Program-made: the position numbers and the translations under genes
The notes under the pieces: generated by a model
What the model saw: the letters and a program-made list of their open reading frames with translations, nothing else
Databases searched by the model: none
What the model was told of the DNA's origin: nothing
Shown: in pieces, positions 1,591 through 54,950 of the stretch
Layout of the letters: each line of letters starts with the position of its first letter
How positions within the stretch are numbered: position 1 is the first letter of the stretch
Virus record (IMG/VR): IMGVR_UViG_3300025425_000010
Span: 1 to 64,000 of that record
Direction: 5' to 3' (one strand)
DNA length: 64,000 nt
From: a virus

Positions 1591-1769
1591 TGTGTGTCAG
1601 ACATTACCTGCGGTGTCACAGGGTGGTTTTTTACCCAAACCACATCCCTAAATGTGGAACTCTGGTTTCCTTCACTCCCGTTAGGGATGGAAATGATTAT
1701 CCAGAGTATTATTTTTTATTTCAAGGTCATTAGGTAAGACGGCTTTCACAGCTTCCGTTTTGACATACA
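1591..1769 (-). ncRNA. Candidate structured non-coding RNA of unknown family
   Basis: GC-enriched, ORF-free island directly downstream of a TATATTTG box (1770-1777). It has a closing stem and at least 5 internal hairpins or stems, folded by eye. Confidence 0.6.
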
Positions 1770-1785
1770 CAAATATACGGATAAA

Positions 1786-3729
1786 TTATTTAAGTTTTAC
1801 AAACATTTCATGTTTTGTTTTACCACAGTCCCAAATCCTATAATATCCAAGACCCGACATATGTTCTCTCTCCGTTATCTTTTGGTTGTGTATACCCATA
1901 TTAGATTTCTTATAGTTTTGTTTGTTTCTTCTAACACCACCAACAACATATTTATAATCCGGATTTGATTTATTAATTGTTTCAAATCCTAGTTTTTTGT
2001 AAAGATTACCAACAGACCAATCATTATCAGAATAACTTATTATTCGAGTTACATTATTATCTTTTATGAAATTGGTTAGTAGTTTAGATGCTCCACCAAC
2101 AACAGATATATTTATTTTATTACAAAATCTAGATAAATTCCACTCACTACCCGGTAATTTCTTACGACCTTCTAATTTATTAAAGGTCATTATAGATACG
2201 ATTTCACCCAAATAGATTAGTCCTACCTTTATATTACTCCTATCCATACCCTGAATATGATTCGTATTCATAAATTCAGTACAATTATCAATATACACAA
2301 TTTCACACTTCCTAGCATATATTTTATTTTTGGTTTTCCCAACGATGTTGTTTATTTGACTCTCAATTATTATTCGATTATTTACCCAATTGTCTTCCCA
2401 AATGTGTATTATACGAATTCCTCTATCATCAAAATATTTGGTCTTATTTAAATGATAATTTTTATCCTTATATTTCTCGGAATGCCAATACAATCCATTA
2501 AATTCAAATCCAATATTTAATCCCGGTAAGTAAATATCTATTTCCAAACCATCACTATAAGATTGTATAATCTCACCATCATAAATCGATGAGATATATT
2601 CCAATAATTCATTCTCGCGTATTGAATAAATACCATTTATTGGATTACAAACCGTACACAACGAAAGGTCACTGGAAGACCTACTTATATAATTACTAGA
2701 TTTAATTGAAAATGTATGACCTTTACCACATAAATAAATAGACTCTTTTACACTCCGGTCATAATTTATATAATTATCCGTTTGACAATTGTTGAAATTT
2801 AATTTTCTTATATTTTCAGATTGTGATACGAATTCAACACCATACTTTTCAATTATTGTATCTTTGGAACTAATTTTAAAATCAGGTGTTTTCATATAAG
2901 AATCCACACCATATTTTTTCAAACATGTTTGTTTTATTTTATCTTTAATTTCTTCGGATTGTGATACGAATTCAACACCATATTTTTCAATTATTCTATC
3001 TTTGGATTGAATTTTAAATTCAATCGTCTTCATATAAGAATCTACACCATATTTTTTCAAACATGTTTGTTTTATTTTATCATGTATATGAGTATAACCA
3101 ACACCATACCTATCTATTTTGGTTTGTTTTGATTTCTCTTTAATATCAGTAAATTTCATGGGGTGATCCACACCATACCTATACATAAATATCTCTTTAA
3201 TTACTTTCTTAATACTATCAGACTGGAATACATTTTCAACACCATATTTTTCAATTATTGATTGTTTAAGATTCTCCTGTACTATATTTGATTTCATAGC
3301 GTGGGTAAAACCATATTTTTCAAGACATGTTTTTTTTGACTTCTCTCGGAATTCATCCGTTTTCATATAATAATCTACACCATATTTTTCGAAATTTGTT
3401 TTTTTGTTTTTTTGTTTTATAGAATCAAGTTTAGAAGGACTATCCACACCATGTTTAATTATTGATAATTCTTTTTTTTTCATAGACCCACACACATTTG
3501 AACAAGCAAATTTCCCATTATGACTCACATTCCGGAAATATTCACAATAGGCTATCACTTTATTTGAATCACAATAATCACAATCAACATCAATAAACAC
3601 CCTTGATGCCTTCGGTAAATCCTCAACAGAGACATCAAAAAAGCCATTATCTAAATCATATCCTAGATTCAAATAATGGCTTTTTGTTTTATTATTAATT
3701 TTAACTTTTACACTTTTAGTATTCAACAT
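1786..3729 (-). CDS. Homing-endonuclease-like protein (Zn finger + KYG repeats + PD-(D/E)xK/Vsr-like nuclease + Mom/GNAT-like C-terminus), copy 1
   Basis: Motifs CDYC, repeated EKYGV, LEIDIYLP..IGFEFNGLYWHS, IHIWED, WNLSRFC, IISYSD, RIWDCG. Confidence 0.8.
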   Translation of the reverse strand: MLNTKSVKVKINNKTKSHYLNLGYDLDNGFFDVSVEDLPKASRVFIDVDCDYCDSNKVIAYCEYFRNVSHNGKFACSNVCGSMKKKELSIIKHGVDSPSKLDSIKQKNKKTNFEKYGVDYYMKTDEFREKSKKTCLEKYGFTHAMKSNIVQENLKQSIIEKYGVENVFQSDSIKKVIKEIFMYRYGVDHPMKFTDIKEKSKQTKIDRYGVGYTHIHDKIKQTCLKKYGVDSYMKTIEFKIQSKDRIIEKYGVEFVSQSEEIKDKIKQTCLKKYGVDSYMKTPDFKISSKDTIIEKYGVEFVSQSENIRKLNFNNCQTDNYINYDRSVKESIYLCGKGHTFSIKSSNYISRSSSDLSLCTVCNPINGIYSIRENELLEYISSIYDGEIIQSYSDGLEIDIYLPGLNIGFEFNGLYWHSEKYKDKNYHLNKTKYFDDRGIRIIHIWEDNWVNNRIIIESQINNIVGKTKNKIYARKCEIVYIDNCTEFMNTNHIQGMDRSNIKVGLIYLGEIVSIMTFNKLEGRKKLPGSEWNLSRFCNKINISVVGGASKLLTNFIKDNNVTRIISYSDNDWSVGNLYKKLGFETINKSNPDYKYVVGGVRRNKQNYKKSNMGIHNQKITEREHMSGLGYYRIWDCGKTKHEMFVKLK

Positions 3730-4216: not shown

Positions 4217-5143
4217 ATGGATTACTTAAAATCTTTTAAATTGTTCGAAACCGTATTCTTTAAGATGGATATTTTCACTGATAAAATAGAATCGATTTGT
4301 CACAACTTCGATTTTTATTATATCGAACAAAAAAAAATTACAAATAATATTCTATTAAGTATGTGTAAACATAACTACAATGGTATAATGTGTCTACATA
4401 TCGAGGAATTCTATCTAAATAATAATAATGATGAGCTCAAATTACAATTTTATATAAATGAGGAGTATTATCAAGAAAATGAAGTAGAGTTGTTAAAGAA
4501 CATAGATTGGATGGGTGAGATATCCAATTATGAATATCTATCATTCGATGATAAACATATGTTGACGAATGTTGAAAATCCAAATATACGAGGTAAAGGC
4601 GAAAATATAATACCGATATCTGTTAAAGAATATCCAAGTGGTGATACAAAATTCGAAGCGAGAATGATATCAGTAGATTTCAAATGTACGGTAATGGATA
4701 TGTTATTCGTTTTATTTTTCAAACCAGAAGTTTATACAACTGATAAAAAACACTTCAATGATATAGTGAGTAGAATACAGACTGATGAACTGGTTAAAGA
4801 TTTACTAAAATTACATGTAGATAATAGAGGTCTTAATATTAATTGGGAGCCAATTAAATCAATAAATGGGAAAGGTGTGGTATCACACCTAGACATAGAA
4901 CACTTTACTAGTTTATATGTTTCGGAACAAGATGTATATAATATGTTTCCTGGGTTCTTCGATGAATTGTATGAGAATAGTGGTATTGTTTGTAACATAG
5001 GTGTTGTTGATGAAGAGTGTCTAGACTTCTATAATGGATTATACACACCAAGAGAGGAAATGAGTAGAGTGCTCAGTAAACACAATATAGATATTGCTTT
5101 TGAGAATATAATGATTATGAACTACACATCAGCTAAAGACTGA
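4217..5143 (+). CDS. Hypothetical protein with N-terminal tag; last 8 codons supplied by MITE B
   Basis: Starts MDYLKSFKLFE with AATATATA upstream. Removing the MITE restores ...ENIMIIN*. Confidence 0.7.
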   Translation: MDYLKSFKLFETVFFKMDIFTDKIESICHNFDFYYIEQKKITNNILLSMCKHNYNGIMCLHIEEFYLNNNNDELKLQFYINEEYYQENEVELLKNIDWMGEISNYEYLSFDDKHMLTNVENPNIRGKGENIIPISVKEYPSGDTKFEARMISVDFKCTVMDMLFVLFFKPEVYTTDKKHFNDIVSRIQTDELVKDLLKLHVDNRGLNINWEPIKSINGKGVVSHLDIEHFTSLYVSEQDVYNMFPGFFDELYENSGIVCNIGVVDEECLDFYNGLYTPREEMSRVLSKHNIDIAFENIMIMNYTSAKD

Positions 5144-5363
5144 TGTGTTTCTACGTCACAAGCACGATGTAACCATCCACTTTGTGTGACGCTGGGTTTG
5201 TTCCTCAACCCAAAATTTCTTATATTTTTAGCAGCATTCTATATTTAAAGGATTTTAACATTTCTTCAAACCATATATTAAAAGCACCAAGCCTCTTTTT
5301 AAATGGTTATGGTGTCACTTACATCACACAAGCTAAAGACTTGTGTGTTTTACATTCCGTTAT
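5117..5363 (-). mobile_element. IS200/IS605 MITE (copy B): internally deleted tnpB element
   Basis: Left end follows TTTAT. The tnpB-like start MLKSFKYR is joined to the tnpB 3' end. 5117-5238 matches 32752-32873 with 2 mismatches in 122 bp. Right end GTGTAGTTCAT. Confidence 0.85.
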
Positions 5364-5382
5364 ATAAATTAATATATACGAA

Positions 5383-6743: not shown

Positions 6744-8075
6744 ATGTTGAAAAATTATTGGGATTTCATATCAGAGCGAATTGCTTTCATTGATGAGAGT
6801 AAGGTTATATCAGAAGATGATATTCTAACACACTTTGAACCATTAACAGATAATAGATATGATATTGAAATATACCAGTTTCTAAAATCCGATTTATTGG
6901 ATTATTTTAGAACTGGTGAGATATCTGAGCATGAGCTGTCCAGTGAAAGAGAGTATCATAATTGTTATAGTGTGATGATAAAACCCGTTAAAATAAATCC
7001 GTTAAAAGAAGACATAACATTGGACCTAAAATCATCAATTCAACTAGTTGAGTCTCTGGGTTTACACTTACTCGATAAGGATAATTCATTACCATATGTG
7101 TATGACCAAGATGATGTGGAATACCACCATAATATAGTAGATATAAAGAATGTTATATTAGACGAAGGGTATATAATAGAATGGTTAAGATTAGACAAAT
7201 ATGTTTCGGGTAGATATGATTTAGTTGGGGAAGAACATTCAAATAGAGGTTATACACTATTAGATGGATTGGATATATTATTTGTGGATTTAAATAAACA
7301 TAAATTTACTATAAAGGAAATAGCCAAAAAACTCGAATGGAGAGATTATGAAGTTGATGGTGAAAACATATATTTTGATATCGATATGGAAAATTTACGA
7401 GATCGTGTAATAAATAAAAACGATAATTATTATGATATGTTGGTTGATGGTATTGATTGGGACCATTATTATGATAATTCTTATCAGAATAATCCAACGA
7501 CCGAATCACTATTCCAATACCACCTCGATAATAGCAATGCTAGGATGTTAGTAACAAAAATTATCAAAAATTTTGGTGGTATTGATGTCATAAGACAAGA
7601 AATTGATGATGTCGAAATTTTACATGCTCTCGAAACCGATGTTAAAACTGATGAAAGTTTGGTAGATTTCTTCTTAGTCGGTGATAATTACTCAGAACTA
7701 GATGAAATAGGGGAAGAACTATTAGATGAAGTTAAGAATTTAATTGGTGATGCCTATACAGGAGATTTAGCTTCTGAAACATTAGAGGCTGTCATTAGTT
7801 CATTTGATAGTAAATTAACTGATGAAGGTATTAAATTTCATAGTAAACGTGAGGATGAGGATGGTAATTGGACTTACCGATTCTATTATAGTAATGATTG
7901 GTTGGATGATATATCTTTCGATTACGGGGAAACACGGGGATTGTCATTAGAAGGTATATTTATTGAGTTCGTTGATACTTTCGGATCATTTTACTTAAGT
8001 CCAAACATACCTGATTATGGTGATCCTGATAGTCATTCATATAATGCTGACATAAAACAACACCTGAGTAACTAA
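6744..8075 (+). CDS. Acidic hypothetical protein with N-terminal tag
   Basis: 443-aa ORF starting MLKNYWDFISE, with TTATATATAC upstream. Confidence 0.75.
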   Translation: MLKNYWDFISERIAFIDESKVISEDDILTHFEPLTDNRYDIEIYQFLKSDLLDYFRTGEISEHELSSEREYHNCYSVMIKPVKINPLKEDITLDLKSSIQLVESLGLHLLDKDNSLPYVYDQDDVEYHHNIVDIKNVILDEGYIIEWLRLDKYVSGRYDLVGEEHSNRGYTLLDGLDILFVDLNKHKFTIKEIAKKLEWRDYEVDGENIYFDIDMENLRDRVINKNDNYYDMLVDGIDWDHYYDNSYQNNPTTESLFQYHLDNSNARMLVTKIIKNFGGIDVIRQEIDDVEILHALETDVKTDESLVDFFLVGDNYSELDEIGEELLDEVKNLIGDAYTGDLASETLEAVISSFDSKLTDEGIKFHSKREDEDGNWTYRFYYSNDWLDDISFDYGETRGLSLEGIFIEFVDTFGSFYLSPNIPDYGDPDSHSYNADIKQHLSN

Positions 8076-11255: not shown

Positions 11256-11469
11256 TTAATATCTCAATTAATTTTTTATTCCTATCACATCTATCAAATA
11301 GTATTTTACCGAATAACGTTAGTGATGCATTTGCCTTACTACCAATTATTATACCCTTATCGTGTAGTTTATCAGCAATGTCAGGCCACTGTTCTTTCAT
11401 TTCCATGAAGTTCAAAGTACCATCTATAGATTTTCTAAAAATTTTTATATGACGGAACGTAAAACACAC
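11248..11469 (-). CDS. Small hypothetical protein with C-terminal motif; 5' end abuts MITE C
   Basis: Ends DRNKKLIEILNE. The listed start lies inside the MITE, so the true start is uncertain. Confidence 0.5.
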   Translation of the reverse strand: MCFTFRHIKIFRKSIDGTLNFMEMKEQWPDIADKLHDKGIIIGSKANASLTLFGKILFDRCDRNKKLIEILNE

Positions 11470-11623
11470 AAGTCTTTAGCTTGTGTGATGTAAGTGACAT
11501 AAAAAATAAACAAAAAGGGGAGGATGTTAATATAATATATAATATGTCTGGGTTGAGGGACCAATTTCGGACTTTAAACAAAAAGGCGTTCTCGTTCAAA
11601 TCTTTAGTTTGTGTGTAGTTCAT
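11449..11623 (+). mobile_element. IS200/IS605-derived MITE (copy C)
   Basis: TTTAT|ATGACGG...hairpin...GTGTAGTTCAT. Near-identical to 1-175. Confidence 0.85.
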
Positions 11624-32157: not shown

Positions 32158-32751
32158 CTATCTACAAGCAAATCGTAGAGTTCTTAATATTCGAAGGGGG
32201 TCTTCTTCTATTCTAAGTTTTGGATCACCAATCATTCGTATAACTCCATTTTTCAAATCAGTATATCCACCAACAAGGTCTATTATCTTTCGAGTTCTTA
32301 GATCAAAAAACATCCCATTTATGGTCAAATCTCTTCGAGTAACGTCTTCTTCGATAGTAACACCCAGTTTAACCTCAGGGTTTCTACCTTTTGATATATC
32401 TTGTCTGAATGTAGCTATCTCAACACCCTCTGGTTGATCATCTGTGAATACTACAACGACACCAAATGCCTCACCTTGTAGTTGTGTTCTATATCCTTTG
32501 AGAATCGCCATAACTTCATCTGGTAGAGCATCTGTTGCAACGTCAAAGTCTTTGGGGTCATGTCCTGTAATGAAATCTCGTACTGATCCACCTACGAGGT
32601 ATAGATTCTTACCAGCTTTGGTGAATAGTTTCGTAATCTCTTTTATGGAGTTTGGTACAATTTCATAAAGGCCATCAGCCTCGATTGGAATAAGAGCTAC
32701 ATTATTTTCCATAGATTCAACAAATATATGAAAATTATTTATCATCTTCAT
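32158..32751 (-). CDS. CCA-adding enzyme / poly(A) polymerase family, N-terminal catalytic fragment
   Basis: VGGSVRD..DFD, EIATFR, RRDLTIN, EDPLRILR..RF, then a stop codon. Confidence 0.9.
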   Translation of the reverse strand: MKMINNFHIFVESMENNVALIPIEADGLYEIVPNSIKEITKLFTKAGKNLYLVGGSVRDFITGHDPKDFDVATDALPDEVMAILKGYRTQLQGEAFGVVVVFTDDQPEGVEIATFRQDISKGRNPEVKLGVTIEEDVTRRDLTINGMFFDLRTRKIIDLVGGYTDLKNGVIRMIGDPKLRIEEDPLRILRTLRFACR

Positions 32752-32756
32752 ATTAA

Positions 32757-33194
32757 CTACACATCAGCTAAAGGCTGATGTGTTTCTACGTCACAAGCAC
32801 GATGTAACCATCCACTTTGTGTGACGCTGGGTTTGTTCCTCAACCCAAAATTTCTTATATTTTTAGCAGCATTTATATCTCTATCGTGATTGGTTCCACA
32901 TTTACAAGTCCATTCCCGGTCATTTAAAGATAATTCTTTATTGATAACTCCACAATTAGAACACGTTTTACTGGATGGGTCAAATCTACCAATAACGGAT
33001 AGATTTTTACCATACAATTTACATTTATATTCCAACATTGACCTGAAATCAAACCAACCCATATCTTTAGCTCCTTCTGTTTCTATTTTATCTGCTCTAC
33101 GACCATGTTTTATTTTACGAGCATATTCAGATGCTTTAACTAATTTCTCTGGTGATAACTCCTCATATGTCTTTATATATCTTAAATTGTCCAT
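32757..33194 (-). pseudogene. tnpB: Truncated TnpB (Zn finger + RuvC-III) fused to a phage tagged N-terminus; element right end at ~32752
   Basis: WFDFRSMLEYKC, PSSKTCSNCG..REWTC.CG..HDRDINAAKNI. The N-terminal ~40 aa are not TnpB-like. Confidence 0.85.
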
Positions 33195-34665: not shown

Positions 34666-36555
34666 TTAATTTGTTAATAATTCAAATTTCATTTTACCAC
34701 AATCATATATTCTTAGGTGTCCTGACTCTTTCATATATTGTGATTCCGTCATACTCACTTCTAATTTTAATTTGGATTTCCGGTATGAGGATTTGTGTTT
34801 TCTTTTCCCATTAATTATGTAGGAATAATCTGGTTTGGATTCAGATATTTTATCGAATCCCAGTTTTTTATATAGGTTACCGTTACTCCAGCTCATATCG
34901 GCATAACTTATAATACGTTCAGCTTTATTCATATCTATGAAATGTTTGAGTAGTTTTGATGCACCACCAACTATAGTATGTTCCGATTTATTACAGAAAC
35001 GTGAAAGATTCCACCCACTTTCTAACATTTTTTTGCGGCCTTCTGATTTATCGAATGTCATTATACTAACCAACTCACCATCACAAATTAACCCCAGTGA
35101 TTTCTTAATAGTCTTGTTATATCCCTGTATATGGTTGTTATTCAAGAATTCACGTATGATATTGTTATCGAATAATTCGATAATATCACATTTCCTGGCA
35201 AATATTCGGGTTGTTGTCTTGATTAACATATTGGATATCATTGACTTTTGTATAACATTCTTATATATCCACTCATCTTCCCATATATGTATTATGCGTA
35301 TGTCCCTATCTAGAAAATGTTTAGTCTTTTTTTGGTGATAGTTCCTGTCCTTATTCGCCTCTGAATGCCAGTATAATCCATTATACTCAAAACCTATTTT
35401 AAGTGCTGGTAGGTAAATATCTATCTCCAAACCATCACGATATGATTGTATGATTTCACCGTCATAAATTGATGATATAAATTCAAATAGTTCCTGTTCT
35501 CTGATGGATATAGTATTCTTAATAGGATGGCACACCGTACACATTGGTAAATTTTGTTTTTTTCTACTGAAATAGTTATCAGTGTGTATTTCAAAATTGT
35601 GTTCCTTATCACAACGAAAAAGAGAAATTCTACTTCCTATATAGGAAATATATACATCATCACTACCTATTATGGTATTTTCTTTACGGAAAATATCACT
35701 TGATGTGTTGTTTGTTGTGCCAAATTTTTCTACATTATTTACTTCTCGTATATTTTTAATATCGTTGTTCTGTATTGGATATTCAAATCCATACCTTTCT
35801 AGATTTGTTACACGTATCCGTTTCTTTATGATGTCTGACTTTAATGGGTTATCTACATTATAATTACTCAGTAGTGTTTCTTTGGATTTTTTCTGTATCT
35901 CATTGGATAATAGTGGTGATCTATATCCATACCTTTCTAAATTGGTTTCAATAATCTTTTGCTTGACCTCATCGGATTTTGATGGGGTTTCAAAACCATA
36001 CCTTTCTAGATTAGTTTTCTTAGATTTATCTCTAACTACATCAGATTGTAGTGACCACTCAACACCATATTTACCCAGGTTAGTTTTTTTCACTTTGTCT
36101 TTATATTCATCTGTTTTAGTGAAATTATCAACACCATACCTTTCTAGATTAGTTTCAATTATTTTATCCTTCACCATATCACTCTGAAACGAGTGACTAA
36201 CTCCATACCTTTCTACATTTGTATTTATTCGATTTTTTTTAACAGATTCTAATTGTGATATGTTGTTAGCACCAGTAGTTTCCCTGAGGATTTGTCTTCT
36301 TTTAACATCACCACATTTATGAGAACAACAGAACAAACCCCCTTTTAAAATGCTTCTATTGTATAATTTGTATGTGATGTCTACATCATTCTCACAAATA
36401 TCACACTTGGCTCTTATAATTGAATTTGATCCGTGTGTGAGTTCTTCGACTTTAACTTCGATAATATCACCAGAAACAACAATATATCCGATATTATTAA
36501 AATGTTTTTTGTTTTGTGGGAATATCTTAATGTGTATTGTTTTGGTTAATATCAT
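34666..36555 (-). CDS. KYG-repeat homing-endonuclease-like protein, copy 2
   Basis: Same architecture as 1786-3729. Confidence 0.8.
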   Translation of the reverse strand: MILTKTIHIKIFPQNKKHFNNIGYIVVSGDIIEVKVEELTHGSNSIIRAKCDICENDVDITYKLYNRSILKGGLFCCSHKCGDVKRRQILRETTGANNISQLESVKKNRINTNVERYGVSHSFQSDMVKDKIIETNLERYGVDNFTKTDEYKDKVKKTNLGKYGVEWSLQSDVVRDKSKKTNLERYGFETPSKSDEVKQKIIETNLERYGYRSPLLSNEIQKKSKETLLSNYNVDNPLKSDIIKKRIRVTNLERYGFEYPIQNNDIKNIREVNNVEKFGTTNNTSSDIFRKENTIIGSDDVYISYIGSRISLFRCDKEHNFEIHTDNYFSRKKQNLPMCTVCHPIKNTISIREQELFEFISSIYDGEIIQSYRDGLEIDIYLPALKIGFEYNGLYWHSEANKDRNYHQKKTKHFLDRDIRIIHIWEDEWIYKNVIQKSMISNMLIKTTTRIFARKCDIIELFDNNIIREFLNNNHIQGYNKTIKKSLGLICDGELVSIMTFDKSEGRKKMLESGWNLSRFCNKSEHTIVGGASKLLKHFIDMNKAERIISYADMSWSNGNLYKKLGFDKISESKPDYSYIINGKRKHKSSYRKSKLKLEVSMTESQYMKESGHLRIYDCGKMKFELLTN

Positions 36556-36666: not shown

Positions 36667-38553
36667 ATGATATTAGATGAATATGTGAAAGTAGAGTTGG
36701 TGAATAGGAACTATAAAAAATTATCAAGTAAGTATGGTCTCAAAGATGTATCAGTTGGTGATATTGTTGAAATACCAATTAATAAATTATCTAAATCATC
36801 ACACTACATGGTTAATGTATCCTGTGATTATTGTGATATTAATTTAGAGGTTCCGTTTAAACGGTATAATAAGAGTACTGAGGTTATTGATAAATACTCA
36901 TGTTCGAATAAGGATTGCTCAAACCAAAAGATTAAAGATGTCTGTCAAGAAAAATATGGTGTCGATAATCCCTTCCAATCCAAAAATGTTAAAAAGAAGA
37001 TTAAAGAAACCATGTTGTATAAATATGGAGTTGAACACCCAATGTTTTTAGAAGAAACAAAAGGGAAAATAAAAGATACTTGTTTGGAAAGGTATGGTGT
37101 TGATAACTATACTAAAACCGATGAATATAAAGTAAAAACAAAGGAAACAAATTTGGAGAGATATGGTGTGGAGTGGGCTATGCAATCGGATGTTATCAAA
37201 GAACGATCCAAGAAGTCCAGTCTGAAGATATATGGAGTAGACCACCCACACAAATCGAAAGTGGTAAGGGATAAATTTATAGAAACCAACATGAATAATT
37301 GTGGGTTTCCTACAAATCTAATGTGTCCAGATAATATTGAACAAGTTAAACATACAAACTTGGATAGATATGGGGTTGAGTATCCACTACAGTCGGAAGA
37401 AATTAAAGATAAAATAAAAATTACTTGTTTAGAAAGATATGGGGTTGATAATCCATTAAAAAGTAAATTGGTTAGAGATAAAATGTATAATACAAATATT
37501 GAAAGATATGGTAATAAATATGTAAGTATGAGTCCTGTTGTACGTAGTAATTTTAAAATGTGTTGTGATGATAATTATATTAAATACCTCGGTAATAATT
37601 ATTCTTCATTTAAATGTTATAAAGGTCATAATTTCAAAATATCAACAAATAATTACTACGGTAGGATGAGTTATGGAACTGTACTTTGTACTGAATGTTA
37701 TCCAATCGGTGATACTGTTTCTATAAATGAGCAAGAAGTTTATAATTATATCAAAGAAATTTATGATGGTGAAATCATACAATCATATCGTGATGGTTTG
37801 GAGATAGATATTTACCTACCAGCACTTAAAATAGGTTTTGAGTATAATGGATTATACTGGCATTCGGATAAATACAAAGATAAAAACTACCATTCGGATA
37901 AAACCAAGTTTTTCAAAGAACGAGGAATACGTATAATACACATCTGGGAAGATGATTGTGTGTTGAAACGTAATATTATAAAGAGTCAAATATCCAATAT
38001 GGTAGGTTTAGTTGTTAATAAGGTATATGGTAGGACGTGTGTAATAAAGGAGTTAGTGGATATTAAGATGTGTAGGAAGTTTTTGGATGATAACCATATA
38101 CAAGGATTTGTACCATCCACACTGAAACTTGGACTATTTTATAGTGGTGAATTGGTTAGTATAATGACATTTGATAAGTTTGAAGGGCGGAAGAAAATGG
38201 AAGAAAATGGGTGGACATTATCCCGGTTTTGTTCTAAAATTGATTATAGTGTAATTGGTGGGTTTACAAAATTACTCAATAATTTTATAAAAATATATAA
38301 CCCAATTAGAATTGTGAGTTATTCTGATAATGATTGGAGTCTGGGTGGTATATATGAAACATCTGGTTTCTCAAAAGTGTCTGATGTACCCATAGACTAT
38401 AAATACATAATAGATGGTGTTCGTGTGAATAAGTCAAAATTTAGAAAATCTAACTTACCAGGGGATTTATCGGAATCTCAGTACATGTCTAGTAATGGTA
38501 TTCTACGAGTCTATAATTGTGGTAAAAGTAAATATGAGATGATATTATCTTAA
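36667..38553 (+). CDS. KYG-repeat homing-endonuclease-like protein, copy 3
   Basis: Same architecture; divergently oriented from copy 2. Confidence 0.8.
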   Translation: MILDEYVKVELVNRNYKKLSSKYGLKDVSVGDIVEIPINKLSKSSHYMVNVSCDYCDINLEVPFKRYNKSTEVIDKYSCSNKDCSNQKIKDVCQEKYGVDNPFQSKNVKKKIKETMLYKYGVEHPMFLEETKGKIKDTCLERYGVDNYTKTDEYKVKTKETNLERYGVEWAMQSDVIKERSKKSSLKIYGVDHPHKSKVVRDKFIETNMNNCGFPTNLMCPDNIEQVKHTNLDRYGVEYPLQSEEIKDKIKITCLERYGVDNPLKSKLVRDKMYNTNIERYGNKYVSMSPVVRSNFKMCCDDNYIKYLGNNYSSFKCYKGHNFKISTNNYYGRMSYGTVLCTECYPIGDTVSINEQEVYNYIKEIYDGEIIQSYRDGLEIDIYLPALKIGFEYNGLYWHSDKYKDKNYHSDKTKFFKERGIRIIHIWEDDCVLKRNIIKSQISNMVGLVVNKVYGRTCVIKELVDIKMCRKFLDDNHIQGFVPSTLKLGLFYSGELVSIMTFDKFEGRKKMEENGWTLSRFCSKIDYSVIGGFTKLLNNFIKIYNPIRIVSYSDNDWSLGGIYETSGFSKVSDVPIDYKYIIDGVRVNKSKFRKSNLPGDLSESQYMSSNGILRVYNCGKSKYEMILS

Positions 38554-40187: not shown

Positions 40188-41870
40188 ATGATATTTGATA
40201 ATAGTATTGAAATTAAAATAACTAAGCGTAATATTGAACACTTCTCTATGTACTACAGAGATATAAAATTAAGGGATATAATTGATGTTTCTCCGGAAAA
40301 TTTACAGAAAAATAGTAATATAAGAATAAATGTTTTATGTGATGTGTGTGGTATCTCTAATAACATTAAGAACCAGGCGTATACTAAGAATATAAATTCA
40401 TGTAAATCTAATCCAATTTATACATGTGATAAATGTTCACATATTAAAAATAAAGCCAGTTGTTTGGAGGTTTATGGTGAGGACCATTATTCTAAAACTG
40501 ATGAGTGGAAGGATCGGACAAGAAAGACTTGTTTGGAAAAATATGGTGAGGATCATTATTCTAAAACTGATGAGTGGTCTAAGAGATTTGAAGAGACTTG
40601 TTTGGAGAAGTATGGGGTTGAAAACCCATTTATGGATTCTAAAAAAATAAGAGAATCTTTCAATAGTAAGTATGGAGTTGACCACCCATCACAGGTTACT
40701 GAAATACATGAACGTATTAAGAGTAGTAATAAAACATCAACCGGGTATGAGAGTCCGTTATCCTCCCCAGAGATAAGGAGTCGTATTAATACTACAATGT
40801 TGCGTAAGTATGGTTCTATAATACCATATAAGTCGGAAGATATTAGGTCAAGGTTAGTGGTGTGTAAGAATAAAAATTATTTAAATTATATAAGTGATAA
40901 TATATCACTGTTTAAGTGTGATAATGGATGTGATCACAATTTTGAAATGGAATCTTATATGTATCATAATCGTTTACGTGGTGGTGTTCATTTATGTACA
41001 GTATGTAACCCAATTGGGGATTCGGTGTCAATAAAGGAGAAGGAGTTGTTTGAGTATATATCATCAATATATAGTGGTGAAATTATAAGATCATATCGAG
41101 ATGGTTTGGAGATTGATATCTATTTGCCGGAATTGAATATTGGATTTGAATTTAATGGATTGTACTGGCACTCTGAAAAATATAAAGATAAAAATTACCA
41201 CCTAGATAAAACTAACCATTTCAAGGAAAAGGGTATTCGTATAATACACATCTGGGAAGATGATTGGGTGAATAAGACAGATATACTTAAAAGCCAAATA
41301 TCTAATATGGTTGGTGAGACAAATACTAGGATATTTGCTAGAAAATGTGAAGTCCGTGTGGTAGGTAGTAAATTATCTAATATTTTTCTATATGATAACC
41401 ACATACAGGGTGGTGATAAGAGTGTTGTTAAATTGGGTTTGTTTTGTGATGGTGATATGGTATCTATTATGACATTTAATAAATTCGAGGGTAGAAACAA
41501 GATGGGTTTTGGTGAATGGAACCTGTCGAGGTTTTGTAATGTGAAAAATTATTCGGTTGTTGGTGGATCGTCTAAATTATTATCATATTTCATAAAGGAG
41601 AATGTAGTTTCCCGTATAATAAGTTATGCTGATGCTGATTGGTCAGTTGGTAATTTATATAAGGTAATGTGTTTTGAAAAATCTCATCATAGTAACCCAG
41701 ATTATAAATATGTTATTGATGGTGTTCGTAATCACAAACAGAATTATAAGAAGAAGAACCTTGGTATATCAGGTCAAGCCATAACCGAGTCAGTATATAT
41801 GAGAAGTAAAGGTTATTACCGAATATGGGATTGTGGGAAAATAAAATTTACAAAACATGTATCTACATAA
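40188..41870 (+). CDS. KYG-repeat homing-endonuclease-like protein, copy 4
   Basis: Same architecture. Confidence 0.8.
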   Translation: MIFDNSIEIKITKRNIEHFSMYYRDIKLRDIIDVSPENLQKNSNIRINVLCDVCGISNNIKNQAYTKNINSCKSNPIYTCDKCSHIKNKASCLEVYGEDHYSKTDEWKDRTRKTCLEKYGEDHYSKTDEWSKRFEETCLEKYGVENPFMDSKKIRESFNSKYGVDHPSQVTEIHERIKSSNKTSTGYESPLSSPEIRSRINTTMLRKYGSIIPYKSEDIRSRLVVCKNKNYLNYISDNISLFKCDNGCDHNFEMESYMYHNRLRGGVHLCTVCNPIGDSVSIKEKELFEYISSIYSGEIIRSYRDGLEIDIYLPELNIGFEFNGLYWHSEKYKDKNYHLDKTNHFKEKGIRIIHIWEDDWVNKTDILKSQISNMVGETNTRIFARKCEVRVVGSKLSNIFLYDNHIQGGDKSVVKLGLFCDGDMVSIMTFNKFEGRNKMGFGEWNLSRFCNVKNYSVVGGSSKLLSYFIKENVVSRIISYADADWSVGNLYKVMCFEKSHHSNPDYKYVIDGVRNHKQNYKKKNLGISGQAITESVYMRSKGYYRIWDCGKIKFTKHVST

Positions 41871-46388: not shown

Positions 46389-46450
46389 ATTTTTGTTTGT
46401 TAATAATTAGTTAGGGACACATTAAAACGATGTGCTAACACGTAATATAA

Positions 46451-46663
46451 TTAATGCTTAGTTATGTACGCACCAAATAGTTTTAAGCCAATAGCCCAAT
46501 AACCCCATCTGAAACCAATTGCATAAGCAAAACCCAAGTTGTTCATTTGTTCTTTGTCAGCCTGTCCAAATACTAAACTTGGTGTTATTCCAAAATCTAA
46601 GTCTTTAGGTTTTTGCTTTAATCCGTTTAGGTAAAATGGGCTTATTTTGTATTTCGTTTTCAT
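46451..46663 (-). CDS. Small hypothetical protein inside an inverted-repeat-flanked cassette
   Basis: Probable start MKTKYKISPF. Confidence 0.55.
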   Translation of the reverse strand: MKTKYKISPFYLNGLKQKPKDLDFGITPSLVFGQADKEQMNNLGFAYAIGFRWGYWAIGLKLFGAYITKH

Positions 46664-46690
46664 GAACTTGTGTGTTTTACGTTCCGTCAT
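46662..46690 (-). mobile_element. Minimal 29-bp IS200/IS605 MITE relic (copy D)
   Basis: TTTAT|ATGACGGAACGTAAAACACACAAGTTCAT|GAAA: left end fused directly to right end. Confidence 0.7.
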
Positions 46691-46860
46691 ATAAAGTTTT
46701 GTATTTTTAATCCGCACTAATCATATTACTATTCGTATTAGACATAAGGCATTGTGCATTTATTGACCGTCAATGTATCATCTGTTTTGATATGTTCTTC
46801 TATTTTTCTGTATCATACTCACAAATATAGTCGATTATATCTTAATTACCAAAACCTAAA

Positions 46861-48630
46861 TCACCATTTCTTAATAAAATCAGACAATTCTTCAATATAG
46901 ATGTCTTTGGGTTTCTTCTTTTTCATTTCTACCAGTTCAATCTTCTTCAGTTTGATATTTTCCTTTATCTTATCATAGTTCTCTTTGGTTAAGTTATGTA
47001 TAGGAATTCGTAAAAGATAGTCATATGATCCATCTATTTTATCTAACTTGTTTTTTGATATCATCTTCTCAATATCTACCTTCTTTCGGTTGTTAACAAT
47101 TATATCACCTTTGATTATCAATGAAATGAATTTAGACCTATTATCCATAACCCTCAACTCACTAGTTAATTCACTAACGATGTTTTTCTTACGAACATCA
47201 TACCATTTTAATCGAAAATCTACGAAATATGTGATAATATCTTTAACATTCTCGAATATAAGTAATTTACCATGTTCATCTAGTGTATTGTATAATTCGT
47301 GAAAACTTTCTTCTAATTTGAAAACTTTAATCAATTTTATATCAGATAATTCGGCCAAATCTTTACGGCTCATCTTTATAACATAGTTGATATTATCCTT
47401 ACAATTATCTTCATAAGATAGTATAATTCCATCAGATATAAGCTTTTCTAAGATATTTTCATATTTTTCATAAGTCATAGAGGGTGGTAACTCTGTTATA
47501 TTCAATGTGGTCGTGTTAACTTTTTGATATGTACCTCTAACAATCCATGATTTATGTTTCTCTGGATCATTTTCATATGTACCTTTAAACCCATTAATAC
47601 TTGGAGGTATATTCTTAACCTTACCTTTTTTCAAGTAGTTTAAGCAAGCCTTAGACACATCAATTATATCACGATTTAGTATCATTGATTTAAAACCAAC
47701 GGCTATACCACCCCCACCATTAACGAGAATCATTGGTATTATAGGTAGTAAGTATTTTGGCTCAATTTTCTCACCTTCTTCTATCTGATTATCTAATAGA
47801 TTATTATCTCTGTATATTTTTCGATAATTACCATTGAGCTTAGTACCGATATATCTCGGTGCTCCAGCATCAGGTGATCTCAATGAACCAAATTGTCCAT
47901 CTTCGTCCAGTAAGGGAGCATTGTTTTTAAAACTCTGAGCCATGCTGGTGATGGCACTAGATAGTGATGAATTATGAGTTATTATCATTGATTTTTTACC
48001 AATGATGAAATTGTGATGTTCATCAACTGTTATATCATAAAATTTTTCTGGTTTATTTAATTTTATTCTGTTAATTTTATTTATTCGGCATAGGTTTTCT
48101 TTCTTGAAATTTTCAATATTATCAGTTTCTATCAGATTTTTGGCCTCCACCCATCCTCTATCCGTTAGAAATGGGTGATTTGATGTACATGATATTATTT
48201 CACCGGATTCTAATTCAATTTCATATTTATCATTGGTTATATTCCCTACCCTTGGGGAGTGTCCCCTACCTTCACAAAATATTTTCCTCACCTCATCATA
48301 GCAAGTTACATTAAATGATTGGTTTGGGTAATTCTCAAACCAATCACCAATAGTTATATATGTACCATCAGTTAATAATATCTCAGTTGAAAAATCTAAA
48401 CAATCACCATGATGGTACATACAATCACTGGCTACTTTACCAGCCAACTGAAATATCTTGAGTGGTTTCTCCAACCCTGATTTCCACACTTTTGATGAGA
48501 TGTATATTATCTTTCTCTGTACAGGCTTTAATCCATCGACCATTGATGCAATGGCTCTTGATTCGAGAGAATACATTGCAAATTCTTTATATTCCTCACT
48601 TAAGAAGTTTTCTATTTTCTTATTTTTCAT
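46861..48630 (-). CDS. Type IIA topoisomerase subunit A (T4 gp52/GyrA-like) containing a mini-intein
   Basis: DGLKPVQRK, YHHGD, GQFGS, APRY (catalytic Tyr), LVNG..GIAVGF, ITELP. Confidence 0.93.
   Translation of the reverse strand: MKNKKIENFLSEEYKEFAMYSLESRAIASMVDGLKPVQRKIIYISSKVWKSGLEKPLKIFQLAGKVASDCMYHHGDCLDFSTEILLTDGTYITIGDWFENYPNQSFNVTCYDEVRKIFCEGRGHSPRVGNITNDKYEIELESGEIISCTSNHPFLTDRGWVEAKNLIETDNIENFKKENLCRINKINRIKLNKPEKFYDITVDEHHNFIIGKKSMIITHNSSLSSAITSMAQSFKNNAPLLDEDGQFGSLRSPDAGAPRYIGTKLNGNYRKIYRDNNLLDNQIEEGEKIEPKYLLPIIPMILVNGGGGIAVGFKSMILNRDIIDVSKACLNYLKKGKVKNIPPSINGFKGTYENDPEKHKSWIVRGTYQKVNTTTLNITELPPSMTYEKYENILEKLISDGIILSYEDNCKDNINYVIKMSRKDLAELSDIKLIKVFKLEESFHELYNTLDEHGKLLIFENVKDIITYFVDFRLKWYDVRKKNIVSELTSELRVMDNRSKFISLIIKGDIIVNNRKKVDIEKMISKNKLDKIDGSYDYLLRIPIHNLTKENYDKIKENIKLKKIELVEMKKKKPKDIYIEELSDFIKKW
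47971..48402 (-). mobile_element. Mini-intein (144 aa, no endonuclease domain)
   Basis: Starts CL after HHGD; TSNHPF (block B), FYDITV (block F); ends THN followed by Ser. Confidence 0.92.
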
Positions 48631-48685: not shown

Positions 48686-50512
48686 ATGTTACTTAATTTA
48701 AAAATGAAAATCATTGTAAATCCGAATTCAAGGATATATTATAATTCTATTGGTTATGAGTGTGTTAATTATGAGGAGATTGAAATCAATATCATTGAAT
48801 TACCGAAAGGGTCTAATATTGAAATTGATGTATGTTGTGATATATGTAATTTTGGTAAAAAATTAAAATATAATAGTTATTATAAAAATACTAATGGAAA
48901 TACTACTATTTATACTTGTAAGAAATGTTCACATATAAAATCGAAAAAAACCTGTTTAGAACGATATGGTGATGAAAATTATACAAATAAGGAACAATCG
49001 AAAAAAACCTGTTTAGAACGATATGGTGATGAAAATTATACAAATAGGAAACAATCGAAAAAAACCTGTTTAGAACGATATGGTGTGGATAATGTCTCTA
49101 AATTGGATAATGTGAAAAAAAAGAAGATAGAATCGAATCTCATTAATTGGGGTGTTGAGAATGTTTTCCAATCAAATATCATAAAACTTAAAATATACAA
49201 TACTATACAAGACAAATATGGAACAGATACATATATAAAATCATTGGATTTTAAACAGAAATATATGAAATTCTGTGATAAACATGGAGTTGATCATTAT
49301 TCACAAACAGATGAATTCAAACGGAAGTTCGAAAAAACATGTTTATATAGATGGGGGTATAAGACTAATTTAATGAATGATGATATTAAAAAAAGAATTG
49401 CTTTGACAAATACAATGAAATATGGATTTGAAAATCACATGATGAATACAACTCAATCATTTAAGGTAGCACAGACCATGATAAATAAGAGGAAAACTTA
49501 TTATGAATCGTTGGGGTATGAAATGATTGATTATAATTTCGAAAGTAGAAATTATACATTAATAAAAAAAGATTGTGGTCATGAGTTTAATATAACACAT
49601 GATTTATTTAGGAGTCGTATAAAATATGGAAATAATTCTTGTTTACAATGTTATCCAAAAAATGATATGTCTTCTATTAAAGAGAAAAAATTGGGGGAAT
49701 TTATCAGTACTATTTCAGATAACGTAATTTATAATTCGAGGAAAATATTAAATGGTAAAGAATTGGATGCTTATTTACCAAATAATGGATTGGCTATTGA
49801 GTTTAATGGACTTTATTGGCATTCTGATGTTTTTAAGGGAAAATCATATCATTATGATAAAACTATATCATGTAATGATATAGGGGTTGATCTCATGCAT
49901 ATTTGGGAAGATGATTGGGATAATAGAACTGAAATCGTTAAATCAATAATAAGATATAGAACTGGTAATATTCATAATAAGATATATGCGAGGAAATGTG
50001 AAATTATTGAAATATCAAATAAAGAGAGTAACGTTTTTTTAAATAAAAATCATATACAGGGTGGTGTGAATGCTGGTAAATGTATATCTCTTAAATATAA
50101 GGGTGATATTGTATCTGTCATGACTTTTGGAAAAAGGAATATAAATTCAAAGCCAAACACTGAATTATTGAGATTTTGTAATAGGATAAATTGTAATGTT
50201 GTTGGATCATCTTCTAAAATGTTTAAACATTTTATAAAGAATAATGATTTTTCGAAAATAATTTCGTACTCGGATATTTCACTATTTAATGGGGGTGTAT
50301 ATGAGAAATTGGGATTTGAAAATTGTGGAAAGACTTCCTTGAATTATTATTGGACAGATTTATATAAAAGGTATCATAGGTTCAATTTTAATAAGAAAAA
50401 ATTAATAAAAAGGGGATATGATAAAAACAAAACGGAAAATGAAATAATGTCTTCATTGGGATATTATAAAATATGGTCTTGTGGTCAAATAAGATGGGAA
50501 TATAGTAAATGA
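48686..50512 (+). CDS. KYG-repeat homing-endonuclease-like protein, copy 5
   Basis: Same architecture; near-exact 57-bp internal tandem repeat. Confidence 0.8.
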   Translation: MLLNLKMKIIVNPNSRIYYNSIGYECVNYEEIEINIIELPKGSNIEIDVCCDICNFGKKLKYNSYYKNTNGNTTIYTCKKCSHIKSKKTCLERYGDENYTNKEQSKKTCLERYGDENYTNRKQSKKTCLERYGVDNVSKLDNVKKKKIESNLINWGVENVFQSNIIKLKIYNTIQDKYGTDTYIKSLDFKQKYMKFCDKHGVDHYSQTDEFKRKFEKTCLYRWGYKTNLMNDDIKKRIALTNTMKYGFENHMMNTTQSFKVAQTMINKRKTYYESLGYEMIDYNFESRNYTLIKKDCGHEFNITHDLFRSRIKYGNNSCLQCYPKNDMSSIKEKKLGEFISTISDNVIYNSRKILNGKELDAYLPNNGLAIEFNGLYWHSDVFKGKSYHYDKTISCNDIGVDLMHIWEDDWDNRTEIVKSIIRYRTGNIHNKIYARKCEIIEISNKESNVFLNKNHIQGGVNAGKCISLKYKGDIVSVMTFGKRNINSKPNTELLRFCNRINCNVVGSSSKMFKHFIKNNDFSKIISYSDISLFNGGVYEKLGFENCGKTSLNYYWTDLYKRYHRFNFNKKKLIKRGYDKNKTENEIMSSLGYYKIWSCGQIRWEYSK

Positions 50513-54806: not shown

Positions 54807-54928
54807 ATGAACTACACCAGTATATACTTCTCCCTTTTAAACTTTTTTCAAAAACTAATATATAATTAATCAATTGTGTCTTTTATCACACACACACTTC
54901 GTGATGAGTGTGTTTTACGACACGTTAT
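54807..54928 (-). mobile_element. Diverged IS200/IS605 MITE (copy E)
   Basis: TTTAT|ATAACGTGTCGTAAAACACAC hairpin ... GGTGTAGTTCAT. Confidence 0.65.
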
Positions 54929-54950
54929 ATAAAAAGAAAACATAATTGAT

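Follow-up and report, generated by a model that had tools for sequence, protein, structure and literature searches.

The analysis presented here indicates that positions 1765-1491 (minus strand) of a phage genome probably constitute a stand-alone gene of about 275 nt for a non-coding RNA, which would belong, as a diverged representative, to a conserved family of RNAs and would act in trans. The DNA analyzed, hereafter referred to as the window, corresponds to the initial 64 kb of an IMG/VR virus record of 73.7 kb and has a GC content of about 29%, and matching DNA is also present in salt-lake metagenome runs. A first-pass annotation of the window had flagged the stretch 1591-1769 as a promoter-driven, novel structured phage RNA, and this proposal is now supported by a promoter and a terminator that recur across 74 homologs, by strong covariation, and by the lack of a matching Rfam family. 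The flagged span does hold structured RNA, but it was drawn too short, because the RNA is predicted to continue for about 100 nt more, up to an intrinsic terminator.

The record contains T4-like replication genes, including those for a split topoisomerase II, an Rnl1-type RNA ligase and a 5'-3' exonuclease. The large subunit of the topoisomerase shares 63-65% identity with its counterparts on LR745206.1 and LR756502.1, which are uncultured phages of 634,780 and 642,428 bp, respectively. The largest genomes described by Al-Shayeb et al. 2020 (PMC7162821) were assigned in that study to the Mahaphage clade, with Bacteroidetes as their predicted hosts. The topoisomerase A-like subunit of the record (46861-48630, minus strand) has an intein inside, with Intein_splicing and HINT domains.

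The RNA is predicted to have its own promoter and terminator

The flagged stretch is located, on the minus strand, 3' of the stop codon of a gene for a 647-aa endonuclease and 5' of ORF 1544-1122 (Table 1). The -7 consensus of Bacteroidetes promoters is TAnnTTTG, and a putative promoter of this type precedes the RNA. Only five full motifs of this kind are present within the 64 kb, and the 16-mer TTATCCGTATATTTGT, which spans the -7 box, has a second occurrence at about 28165(-), roughly 30 nt 5' of a gene start. A second TATATTTGTG promoter-like site is found at 46829(-), at the head of a 470-nt intergenic gap (46389-46860, minus strand); the sequence behind this site shows no fold (z = +1.7). 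At the other end of the unit lies a predicted intrinsic terminator, which was missed by a simple terminator scan because of its long loop. Thus, based on the positions of the promoter and the terminator, the unit would measure about 275 nt and extend from roughly 1765 to 1491.

The same layout is found in the 74 members of the RNA family described below. Firstly, the TAnnTTTG box is present in all of them, 114-121 nt 5' of a conserved 18-mer. Secondly, 56 of the 74 have TTTG at a spacing of 19-20 nt, and thirdly, the T-run of the terminator is present in 65. The window RNA follows this arrangement, with the promoter box at the set distance and a terminator about 270 nt downstream.

Table 1. 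Predicted elements of the RNA locus in the window
Feature	Position	Strand	Remarks
Endonuclease gene (DUF7487)	3729-1786	-	Upstream neighbor of the RNA
-33 element TTTG	1803-1800	-	Bacteroidetes-type promoter; within the final codons of the endonuclease gene
-7 box TATATTTG	1777-1770	-	Fits TAnnTTTG; spacer to the -33 TTTG 22 nt
Putative ncRNA gene, about 275 nt	1765-1491	-	Both ends predicted from promoter and terminator positions
P1, 5' hairpin (ACG..CGU and GCU/AGC)	1758-1739	-	Positional counterpart of family P1 (GGUAU/AUACC)
A-rich linker AAAUAAAAAAUAAU	1721-1708	-	Near-identical to the family linker AAAUAACAAAUAU
P2	1707-1701 with 1665-1659	-	Encloses P3; family P2 covaries
P3	1693-1689 with 1670-1666	-	Loop has CCCUAA (1686-1681); family P3 covaries
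P4 hairpin CCACAU/AUGUGG	1657-1640	-	6-nt loop UUAGGG (1651-1646)
Kissing contact 1	1651-1646 with 1686-1681	-	P4 loop UUAGGG with P3 loop CCCUAA
P5 GGGU/ACCC	1636-1633 with 1624-1621	-	Span 1636-1608 including CUGUG/CGCAG
CUGUG/CGCAG in the P5 region	1621-1617 with 1612-1608	-	Has the conserved CCGCAG
P6 hairpin AAUGU/ACAUU	1605-1601 with 1593-1589	-	Loop CUGACAC (1600-1594)
Pseudoknot 2	1600-1594 with 1578-1572	-	P6 loop CUGACAC with GUGUUAG
P7 (GUU/AAC and GAA/UUC)	1570-1545	-	Loop UGUGA (1559-1555)
Kissing contact 3	1559-1555 with 1519-1515	-	P7 loop UGUGA with P8 terminator loop UCACA
P8, intrinsic terminator	1538-1491	-	11 + 5 bp hairpin (1538-1496) and U8 run (1498-1491); z = -3.5
Downstream gene, probable 117-aa form	1475-1122	-	Start ATG 1475; cluster member P0002 is the 117-aa form

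With respect to coding content, no ORF of at least 40 aa is present on the minus strand of the flagged stretch, and the plus strand has two 47-aa frames. The possibility of a small-protein gene was considered and rejected: the RNA strand offers only a 29-codon GTG frame, starting at the promoter box, and frames of 4-6 codons. When ORF 1544-1122 is read from ATG 1544, it encodes 140 aa and overlaps the terminator of the RNA, the hairpin being located within its first 23 codons. Its true start is probably ATG 1475, in which case the protein has 117 aa. The sole variant residue in the cluster of this protein, S4F, results from a C-to-U change by which a G-U pair in the terminator stem is retained. 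ORF 1544-1122 has no relatives in viral contigs, and a search among 5.8 billion proteins returned only its own cluster; no relatives were found for ORF 6744-8075 either.

Other intergenic elements were observed in the window. A repeated intergenic cassette, present at 127-182, 5315-5370, 11440-11510 (minus strand), 46642-46697 and 54908-54933, consists of the hairpin ACACAAG-CTAAAGA-CTTGTGT followed by TTTTACGTTCCGTCATATAAA and a gene start close by; it looks like a terminator combined with a phage-specific promoter. In addition, a 123-nt intergenic repeat is present at 5116-5238 and 32751-32873 (98% identity), and a related element, the second repeat type, is located at 1-100 and at about 11530-11600 (minus strand). 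Both repeat types have TCCTCAACCCA ahead of an AT-rich run.

Relatives are found in huge phages and in metagenome contigs

A blastn search of the GenBank phages with the window RNA gave no match. Relatives were obtained with R1, a covariance model of 1585-1775 based on no sequence other than that of the window. Its top matches in LR756502.1 (24.7 bits, E 0.003) and LR745206.1 (21.9 bits, E 0.014) are both full-length and are homologous to each other, with 81% identity. The matches in these huge phages have the layout of the window RNA: the TAnnTTTG box is followed by a 5' hairpin and a linker rich in A, next come a stem with a hairpin inside it and another hairpin whose loop is complementary to that of the former, and then a GGG..CCC helix and CCGCAG, the terminator being located about 270 nt downstream. 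Three IMG/VR contigs were retrieved when a conserved block of these matches was used as query, and 97 metagenome stretches with the 18-mer CTGTTGGTCCCGCAGTAG. After GC-rich chance matches had been removed, 74 distinct members were left. As 71 of these 74 relatives had been gathered via one exact 18-mer, the 18-mer block and P5 cannot vary in this set, and the sample is biased to one subfamily. Four of the five matches to the 18-mer in genome contigs were due to chance. The exact pattern CCCTAACGGGAGTGAAGG did not occur in viral contigs, and the pattern GTGAATTCTSAAAC..TCACAC gave only one new locus there.

Four phage records, with lengths of 155, 436, 635 and 642 kb, each have a single copy of the RNA, and no copy was detected on LR756504.1. 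In the case of LR756502.1, blastn with its own RNA gives a second, partial site; the covariance model R2, a 5'-domain model built from relatives only, gives one copy only. Among 50,697 GenBank phage records, the family was found only in the two huge phages LR745206.1 and LR756502.1, and of the 151 host-phylum genomes sampled a single one has it, a Bacteroidetes metagenome-assembled genome (MAG), on a contig of 4.8 kb. A host-encoded homolog was looked for in the 150 other Bacteroidota genomes sampled and not found; a host-derived RNA is unlikely. The RNA region shows zero differences between contigs from four salt-lake DNA runs, which therefore provide no strain variation.

The window RNA is a divergent member of the family

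Whether the window RNA itself belongs to this family was addressed with models built from the relatives only. The 3'-domain covariance model (R3), when run against the whole window, matched 1611-1466(-) with 34.6 bits (E 1.2e-5), the next best match reaching 13.9 bits. Likewise, an nhmmer profile gave 1587-1485(-) as the sole significant match in the window (E 4.4e-4). These 3' matches correspond to the part of the unit outside the R1 coverage and, like the R1 matches to the 5' domain, they are collinear with the unit. With R2, the flagged 5' domain scored 13.7 bits when the filters were switched off (E 0.085 in 8 kb); under default filters it gave no match. A score of just 13.7 bits implies that the flagged part is strongly diverged in sequence, and its membership accordingly rests on the R1 matches, on the collinearity of the 3' part and on a helix-by-helix correspondence. 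In this regard, the window sequence accommodates each of the family helices, numerous positions differing in a compensatory manner, and the P7 block of the window, GUGAAUUCUCAAAC, is one position off the family consensus GUGAAUUCUGAAAC. The invariant block CUGUUGGUCCCGCAGUAG, and with it the 18-mer, is not found in the window; at this place the window has CCCUGUGACACCGCAGGUAAUG, the common part being only CUGU..CCGCAG..UA. It should be noted that 71 of the 74 members were retrieved by means of this very block, whose invariance is thus partly an artefact; L123, a member found with a different key, is one base off the block. Judged from these sequence comparisons, the window RNA belongs, in diverged form, to a conserved RNA family that is present as a single copy in Mahaphage-like huge phages and also occurs in many metagenome contigs.

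A fold of eight helices and three tertiary contacts is supported by covariation

In the family alignments, covariation is in favor of a fold with eight helices (P1-P8) and three tertiary contacts. The 5' domain was tested on 44 relatives at <93% identity. In this domain, 95.3% of cells are paired, versus 27-47% when the partners are slid, and changes on both sides occur in 21 of 31 pairs, which was matched by none of 500 shuffles. For the 3' domain the corresponding values are 91.9% paired versus 26-40% slid, with both-side changes in 28 of 34 pairs. These counts were taken from MAFFT alignments with some register errors, which lower the paired fractions rather than raise them. Within the 5' domain, four of the five pairs of P1 and all five pairs of P4 covary; P5 of the family (GGGAU with GUCCC) lies inside the invariant block CUGUUGGUCCCGCAGUAG. 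Helix cells with G-U outnumber those with A-C by 221 to 47, which indicates that the folded strand is the one with the promoter and the terminator.

Contact 1 joins the loop of P3 to the whole 6-nt loop of P4. Pairing is retained in 44 of 44 relatives, and three of the six pairs have changed on both sides, the double changes in the family being CG-to-UA and GC-to-AU. The contact is mostly CGGCAA:UUGCCG, with CGGUAA:UUACCG and CAGCAA:UUGCUG as variants; with CCCUAA:UUAGGG, the window combines three compensatory changes at once. Contact 2, between the P6 loop and a strand 10-16 nt downstream, is 98.7% paired, with compensatory changes in six of its seven pairs. Contact 3, between the loops of P7 and P8, takes the form GUGA:UCAC in 35 cases (including the window), GCGA:UCGC in eight and GUGG:CCAC in one, and there is one mismatch.

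All the pairings that had been listed for the flagged stretch are found in the minus-strand sequence, and comparison with the relatives now separates those that appear to be conserved from those that do not. The 5' hairpin, ACUCUGG/CCAGAGU, UUUCC/GGAAA, CCACAU/AUGUGG and GGGU/ACCC all have counterparts in homologs. The 9-nt complementarity between CAUCCCUAA and UUAGGGAUG is exact, and the loop-loop contact that had been predicted from it corresponds, in its 6-nt core, to contact 1, with its compensatory changes. The inner UCCC/GGGA hairpin of the long arm is present in the sequence, but competes with this conserved contact. The closing stem (1769-1761 with 1599-1591) forms eight of its nine pairs, with one A-C mismatch, but it has no counterpart in the family, it clashes with the conserved P6 hairpin and pseudoknot 2, and its 5' strand is located at the probable start of transcription or ahead of it. 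Similarly, the long-range pairing UUACCU/AGGUAA exists, but overlaps P6 and pseudoknot 2 and is without a family counterpart, 5' ends varying freely among the relatives. Moreover, it shares one A with the UGUG/CGCA hairpin, so that full formation of both is impossible.

The energetics of folding are less distinctive. The folding energy of the flagged region has a z of -2.77 against shuffles, and after correction for GC content it ranks 83-96 among 2128 windows of the genome; the plus strand folds as well. The description of the region as a GC-rich island is right for most of its surroundings (0.40-0.42 versus about 0.25-0.30), but some nearby coding stretches reach 0.36-0.40. Folding energy by itself is modest evidence for an RNA, and the real support is carried by the homologs. 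The unexceptional GC-corrected energy and the folding of the plus strand would be expected of a functionless chance fold in an intergenic spacer; against this stand the 74 homologs, in which the promoter and the terminator are conserved and the helices covary, and the independent model matches on the window, so that we consider the probability of a chance fold to be negligible.

Probably a stand-alone RNA rather than part of a neighboring gene

In the first-pass annotation, a cis-regulatory leader of the 1544-640 operon had been given as one possible role. As a riboswitch or attenuator, the domain would sense a signal and the terminator 1538-1491 would gate the genes at 1475-640. Several features are in line with such a role: a promoter, a large conserved fold and a terminator form a riboswitch-like layout, the terminator of the window RNA ends 16 nt before ATG 1475, and in 22 of 63 loci a co-directional ORF lies within about 4-40 nt of the RNA end. 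However, the next ORF is convergent in the other 41 of the 63 loci, which makes a stand-alone RNA more likely than a leader. The neighboring proteins are not conserved either, being unrelated between the window and the relatives. Furthermore, the terminator appears to be an integral and conserved part of the RNA: its loop takes part in the conserved, covarying contact with P7, and hence the hairpin looks constitutive. Finally, no convincing antiterminator pairing was found, the best duplex having -9 kcal/mol, and there was no match to an Rfam riboswitch family. Based on this, we regard a leader function as improbable.

The RNA directly follows the stop codon of the endonuclease gene, the -33 element is located in the last codons of that gene, and the genome contains several paralogous endonuclease genes. 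These observations led us to consider whether the RNA is an element of the homing endonuclease, that is, a 3' UTR, a group I intron remnant or DNA carried along with gene 3729-1786. However, no copy of the RNA was found beside the paralogs in the genome or at seven related endonuclease loci, and the relatives have the RNA without an adjacent endonuclease. Nor was there a match to group I or group II introns (none for Intron_gpI at E up to 10). A group I intron with an endonuclease ORF was also rejected on account of the spacing: just 12 nt separate the FKBP gene, which is intact and complete, from the start of the endonuclease gene, and this is too little to accommodate the 5' half of an intron. 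The loci of endonuclease and FKBP relatives (L002-L010) show neither an RNA copy nor synteny, and no contig bridging an endonuclease-free form of the locus was seen among those of the salt-lake DNA runs. On these sequence comparisons a link of the RNA to the adjacent endonuclease is largely refuted, and we consider this explanation extremely improbable. As to the endonucleases themselves, the window contains five or more endonuclease-like genes of the DUF7487 type (1786-3729, 34666-36555, 36667-38553, 40188-41870 and 48686-50512), which are paralogs and have KYGV-type repeats, and metagenome contigs accumulate over their conserved cores.

Possible function of the RNA

We therefore return to the stand-alone gene as the preferred reading. 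According to this model, the host RNA polymerase would transcribe the RNA from the Bacteroidetes-type promoter (TTTG, 22 nt, TATATTTG), presumably early in infection, and transcription would stop at the intrinsic terminator of the RNA. The transcript is proposed to form a single compact body that has the terminator hairpin itself among its structural parts, the fold being locked by three tertiary pairings, namely those between the P3 and P4 loops, between the P6 loop and the strand downstream, and between the P7 loop and the terminator loop. Such an RNA would act in trans during infection, most likely through binding of a protein or a small ligand, as a scaffold, a decoy or a ribonucleoprotein (RNP) subunit. 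The long invariant unpaired stretches and the three tertiary pairings together point to a defined three-dimensional shape, to which a protein or ligand would bind. The decoy or sponge RNA raised in the first-pass annotation is a speculative role.

Base-pairing with a target, or control of the gene behind, is probably not the mode of action. When four phage genomes were searched for sites with which the conserved 18-mer could pair, the sole match was the RNA gene. An antisense role of the 18-mer was rejected, the matches in five host-phylum genomes being equal to those of a reversed-pattern control.

Our best guess is thus a compact trans-acting RNA that is a protein or ligand binder, a ribozyme or a self-assembling RNA, the latter two being less likely, and more novel, than a binder. 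As a ribozyme or self-assembling RNA, its three loop contacts would build a catalytic core or multimers, as in phi29 pRNA and cage-forming RNAs. The long, highly conserved unpaired stretches and the three tertiary pairings in only about 275 nt fit this idea, as does the survival of loop complementarity through wholesale sequence change (CGGCAA:UUGCCG versus CCCUAA:UUAGGG), the pattern of the phi29 pRNA loops. On the other hand, no known ribozyme or pRNA model matches, no cleavage-site signature was recognized, and intra- and intermolecular contacts fit the present data alike. Taken as an explanation of this locus, it seems to us very improbable. The broader speculation that the family represents a new class of compact, tertiary-structured phage RNA, which would be specific to huge Bacteroidetes phages, be made early by the host polymerase and be either a ribozyme or self-assembling through its covarying loop-loop contacts, is unlikely in our view.

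Comparison with known RNA families

None of the 4227 models of Rfam 15, which include riboswitches, ribozymes, pRNA, 6S, SRP, RNase P, tmRNA, GOLLD, ROOL and HEARO, matched at gathering thresholds. When the 331-nt region 1470-1800 was searched alone with E up to 10, the best scores were 8-18 bits, versus thresholds of 40-100, and two typical relatives likewise gave no match to Rfam 15. ARAGORN detected no tRNA or tmRNA in the window or in the remainder of the record, in agreement with the initial impression that tRNA, tmRNA, SRP and RNase P signatures are lacking. In this remainder (64001-73747), Rfam likewise gave no match at E up to 0.1. The collection of homologs that had been put forward as a check at the outset yielded the 74 members and the covarying helices. 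A full-text search with the signature strings of the family found them in no paper of the collection searched. In the absence of both an Rfam 15 model and a literature match, the RNA is treated here as a new family. Over ten thousand candidates have been reported in a screen of viral and phage structured RNAs (PMC10690425); these anonymous candidates are the same type of object and come from a similar data source, and the family may already be listed, unnamed, in a large screen such as this one.

The phi29-family pRNA (RF00044) resembles the window RNA in that it is structured, is encoded by phages, has a promoter of its own and contains two loops that are complementary via compensatory changes. 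The loops of phi29 pRNA stay complementary across relatives despite wholesale change of their sequence. However, pRNA is shorter (about 120-174 nt), is found in small podoviruses with protein-primed replication and forms its loop pairing from one molecule to another, whereas the family described here occurs in phages of 155-642 kb, has three contacts and is not matched by the RF00044 model. GOLLD and ROOL, which are large structured RNAs linked to phages and prophages, and raiA and OLE as further examples share with it a conserved, intricate fold, pseudoknots and long conserved unpaired stretches, and the family RNA is phage-borne and has no ORF. In contrast to the RNA of about 275 nt described here, GOLLD, ROOL and OLE have roughly 500-800 nt and come from another host phylum, and neither the window RNA nor the two relatives showed a sequence or structure match to the Rfam 15 models of these four. 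Lysine and cobalamin riboswitches likewise combine a promoter, a large conserved fold with a loop-loop contact and an intrinsic terminator. They differ from the RNA family in that, in the latter, the downstream gene is mostly convergent and the terminator loop is part of a tertiary contact, and no model of these riboswitches matched.

Implications

Most of what is known about huge phages comes from metagenomes, and the non-coding genes of these phages have hardly been explored. What appears to be new here is a single-copy RNA gene that is kept across phages of 155-642 kb and dozens of environmental contigs. A host-type promoter, an integral terminator and three covarying contacts, all within about 275 nt, would represent a structural investment of the degree usually seen in ribozymes, riboswitch aptamers and RNP cores. 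The family offers a target that can be synthesized for structure work and for searches for partners or ligands, and the RNA may serve as a marker of this phage clade.
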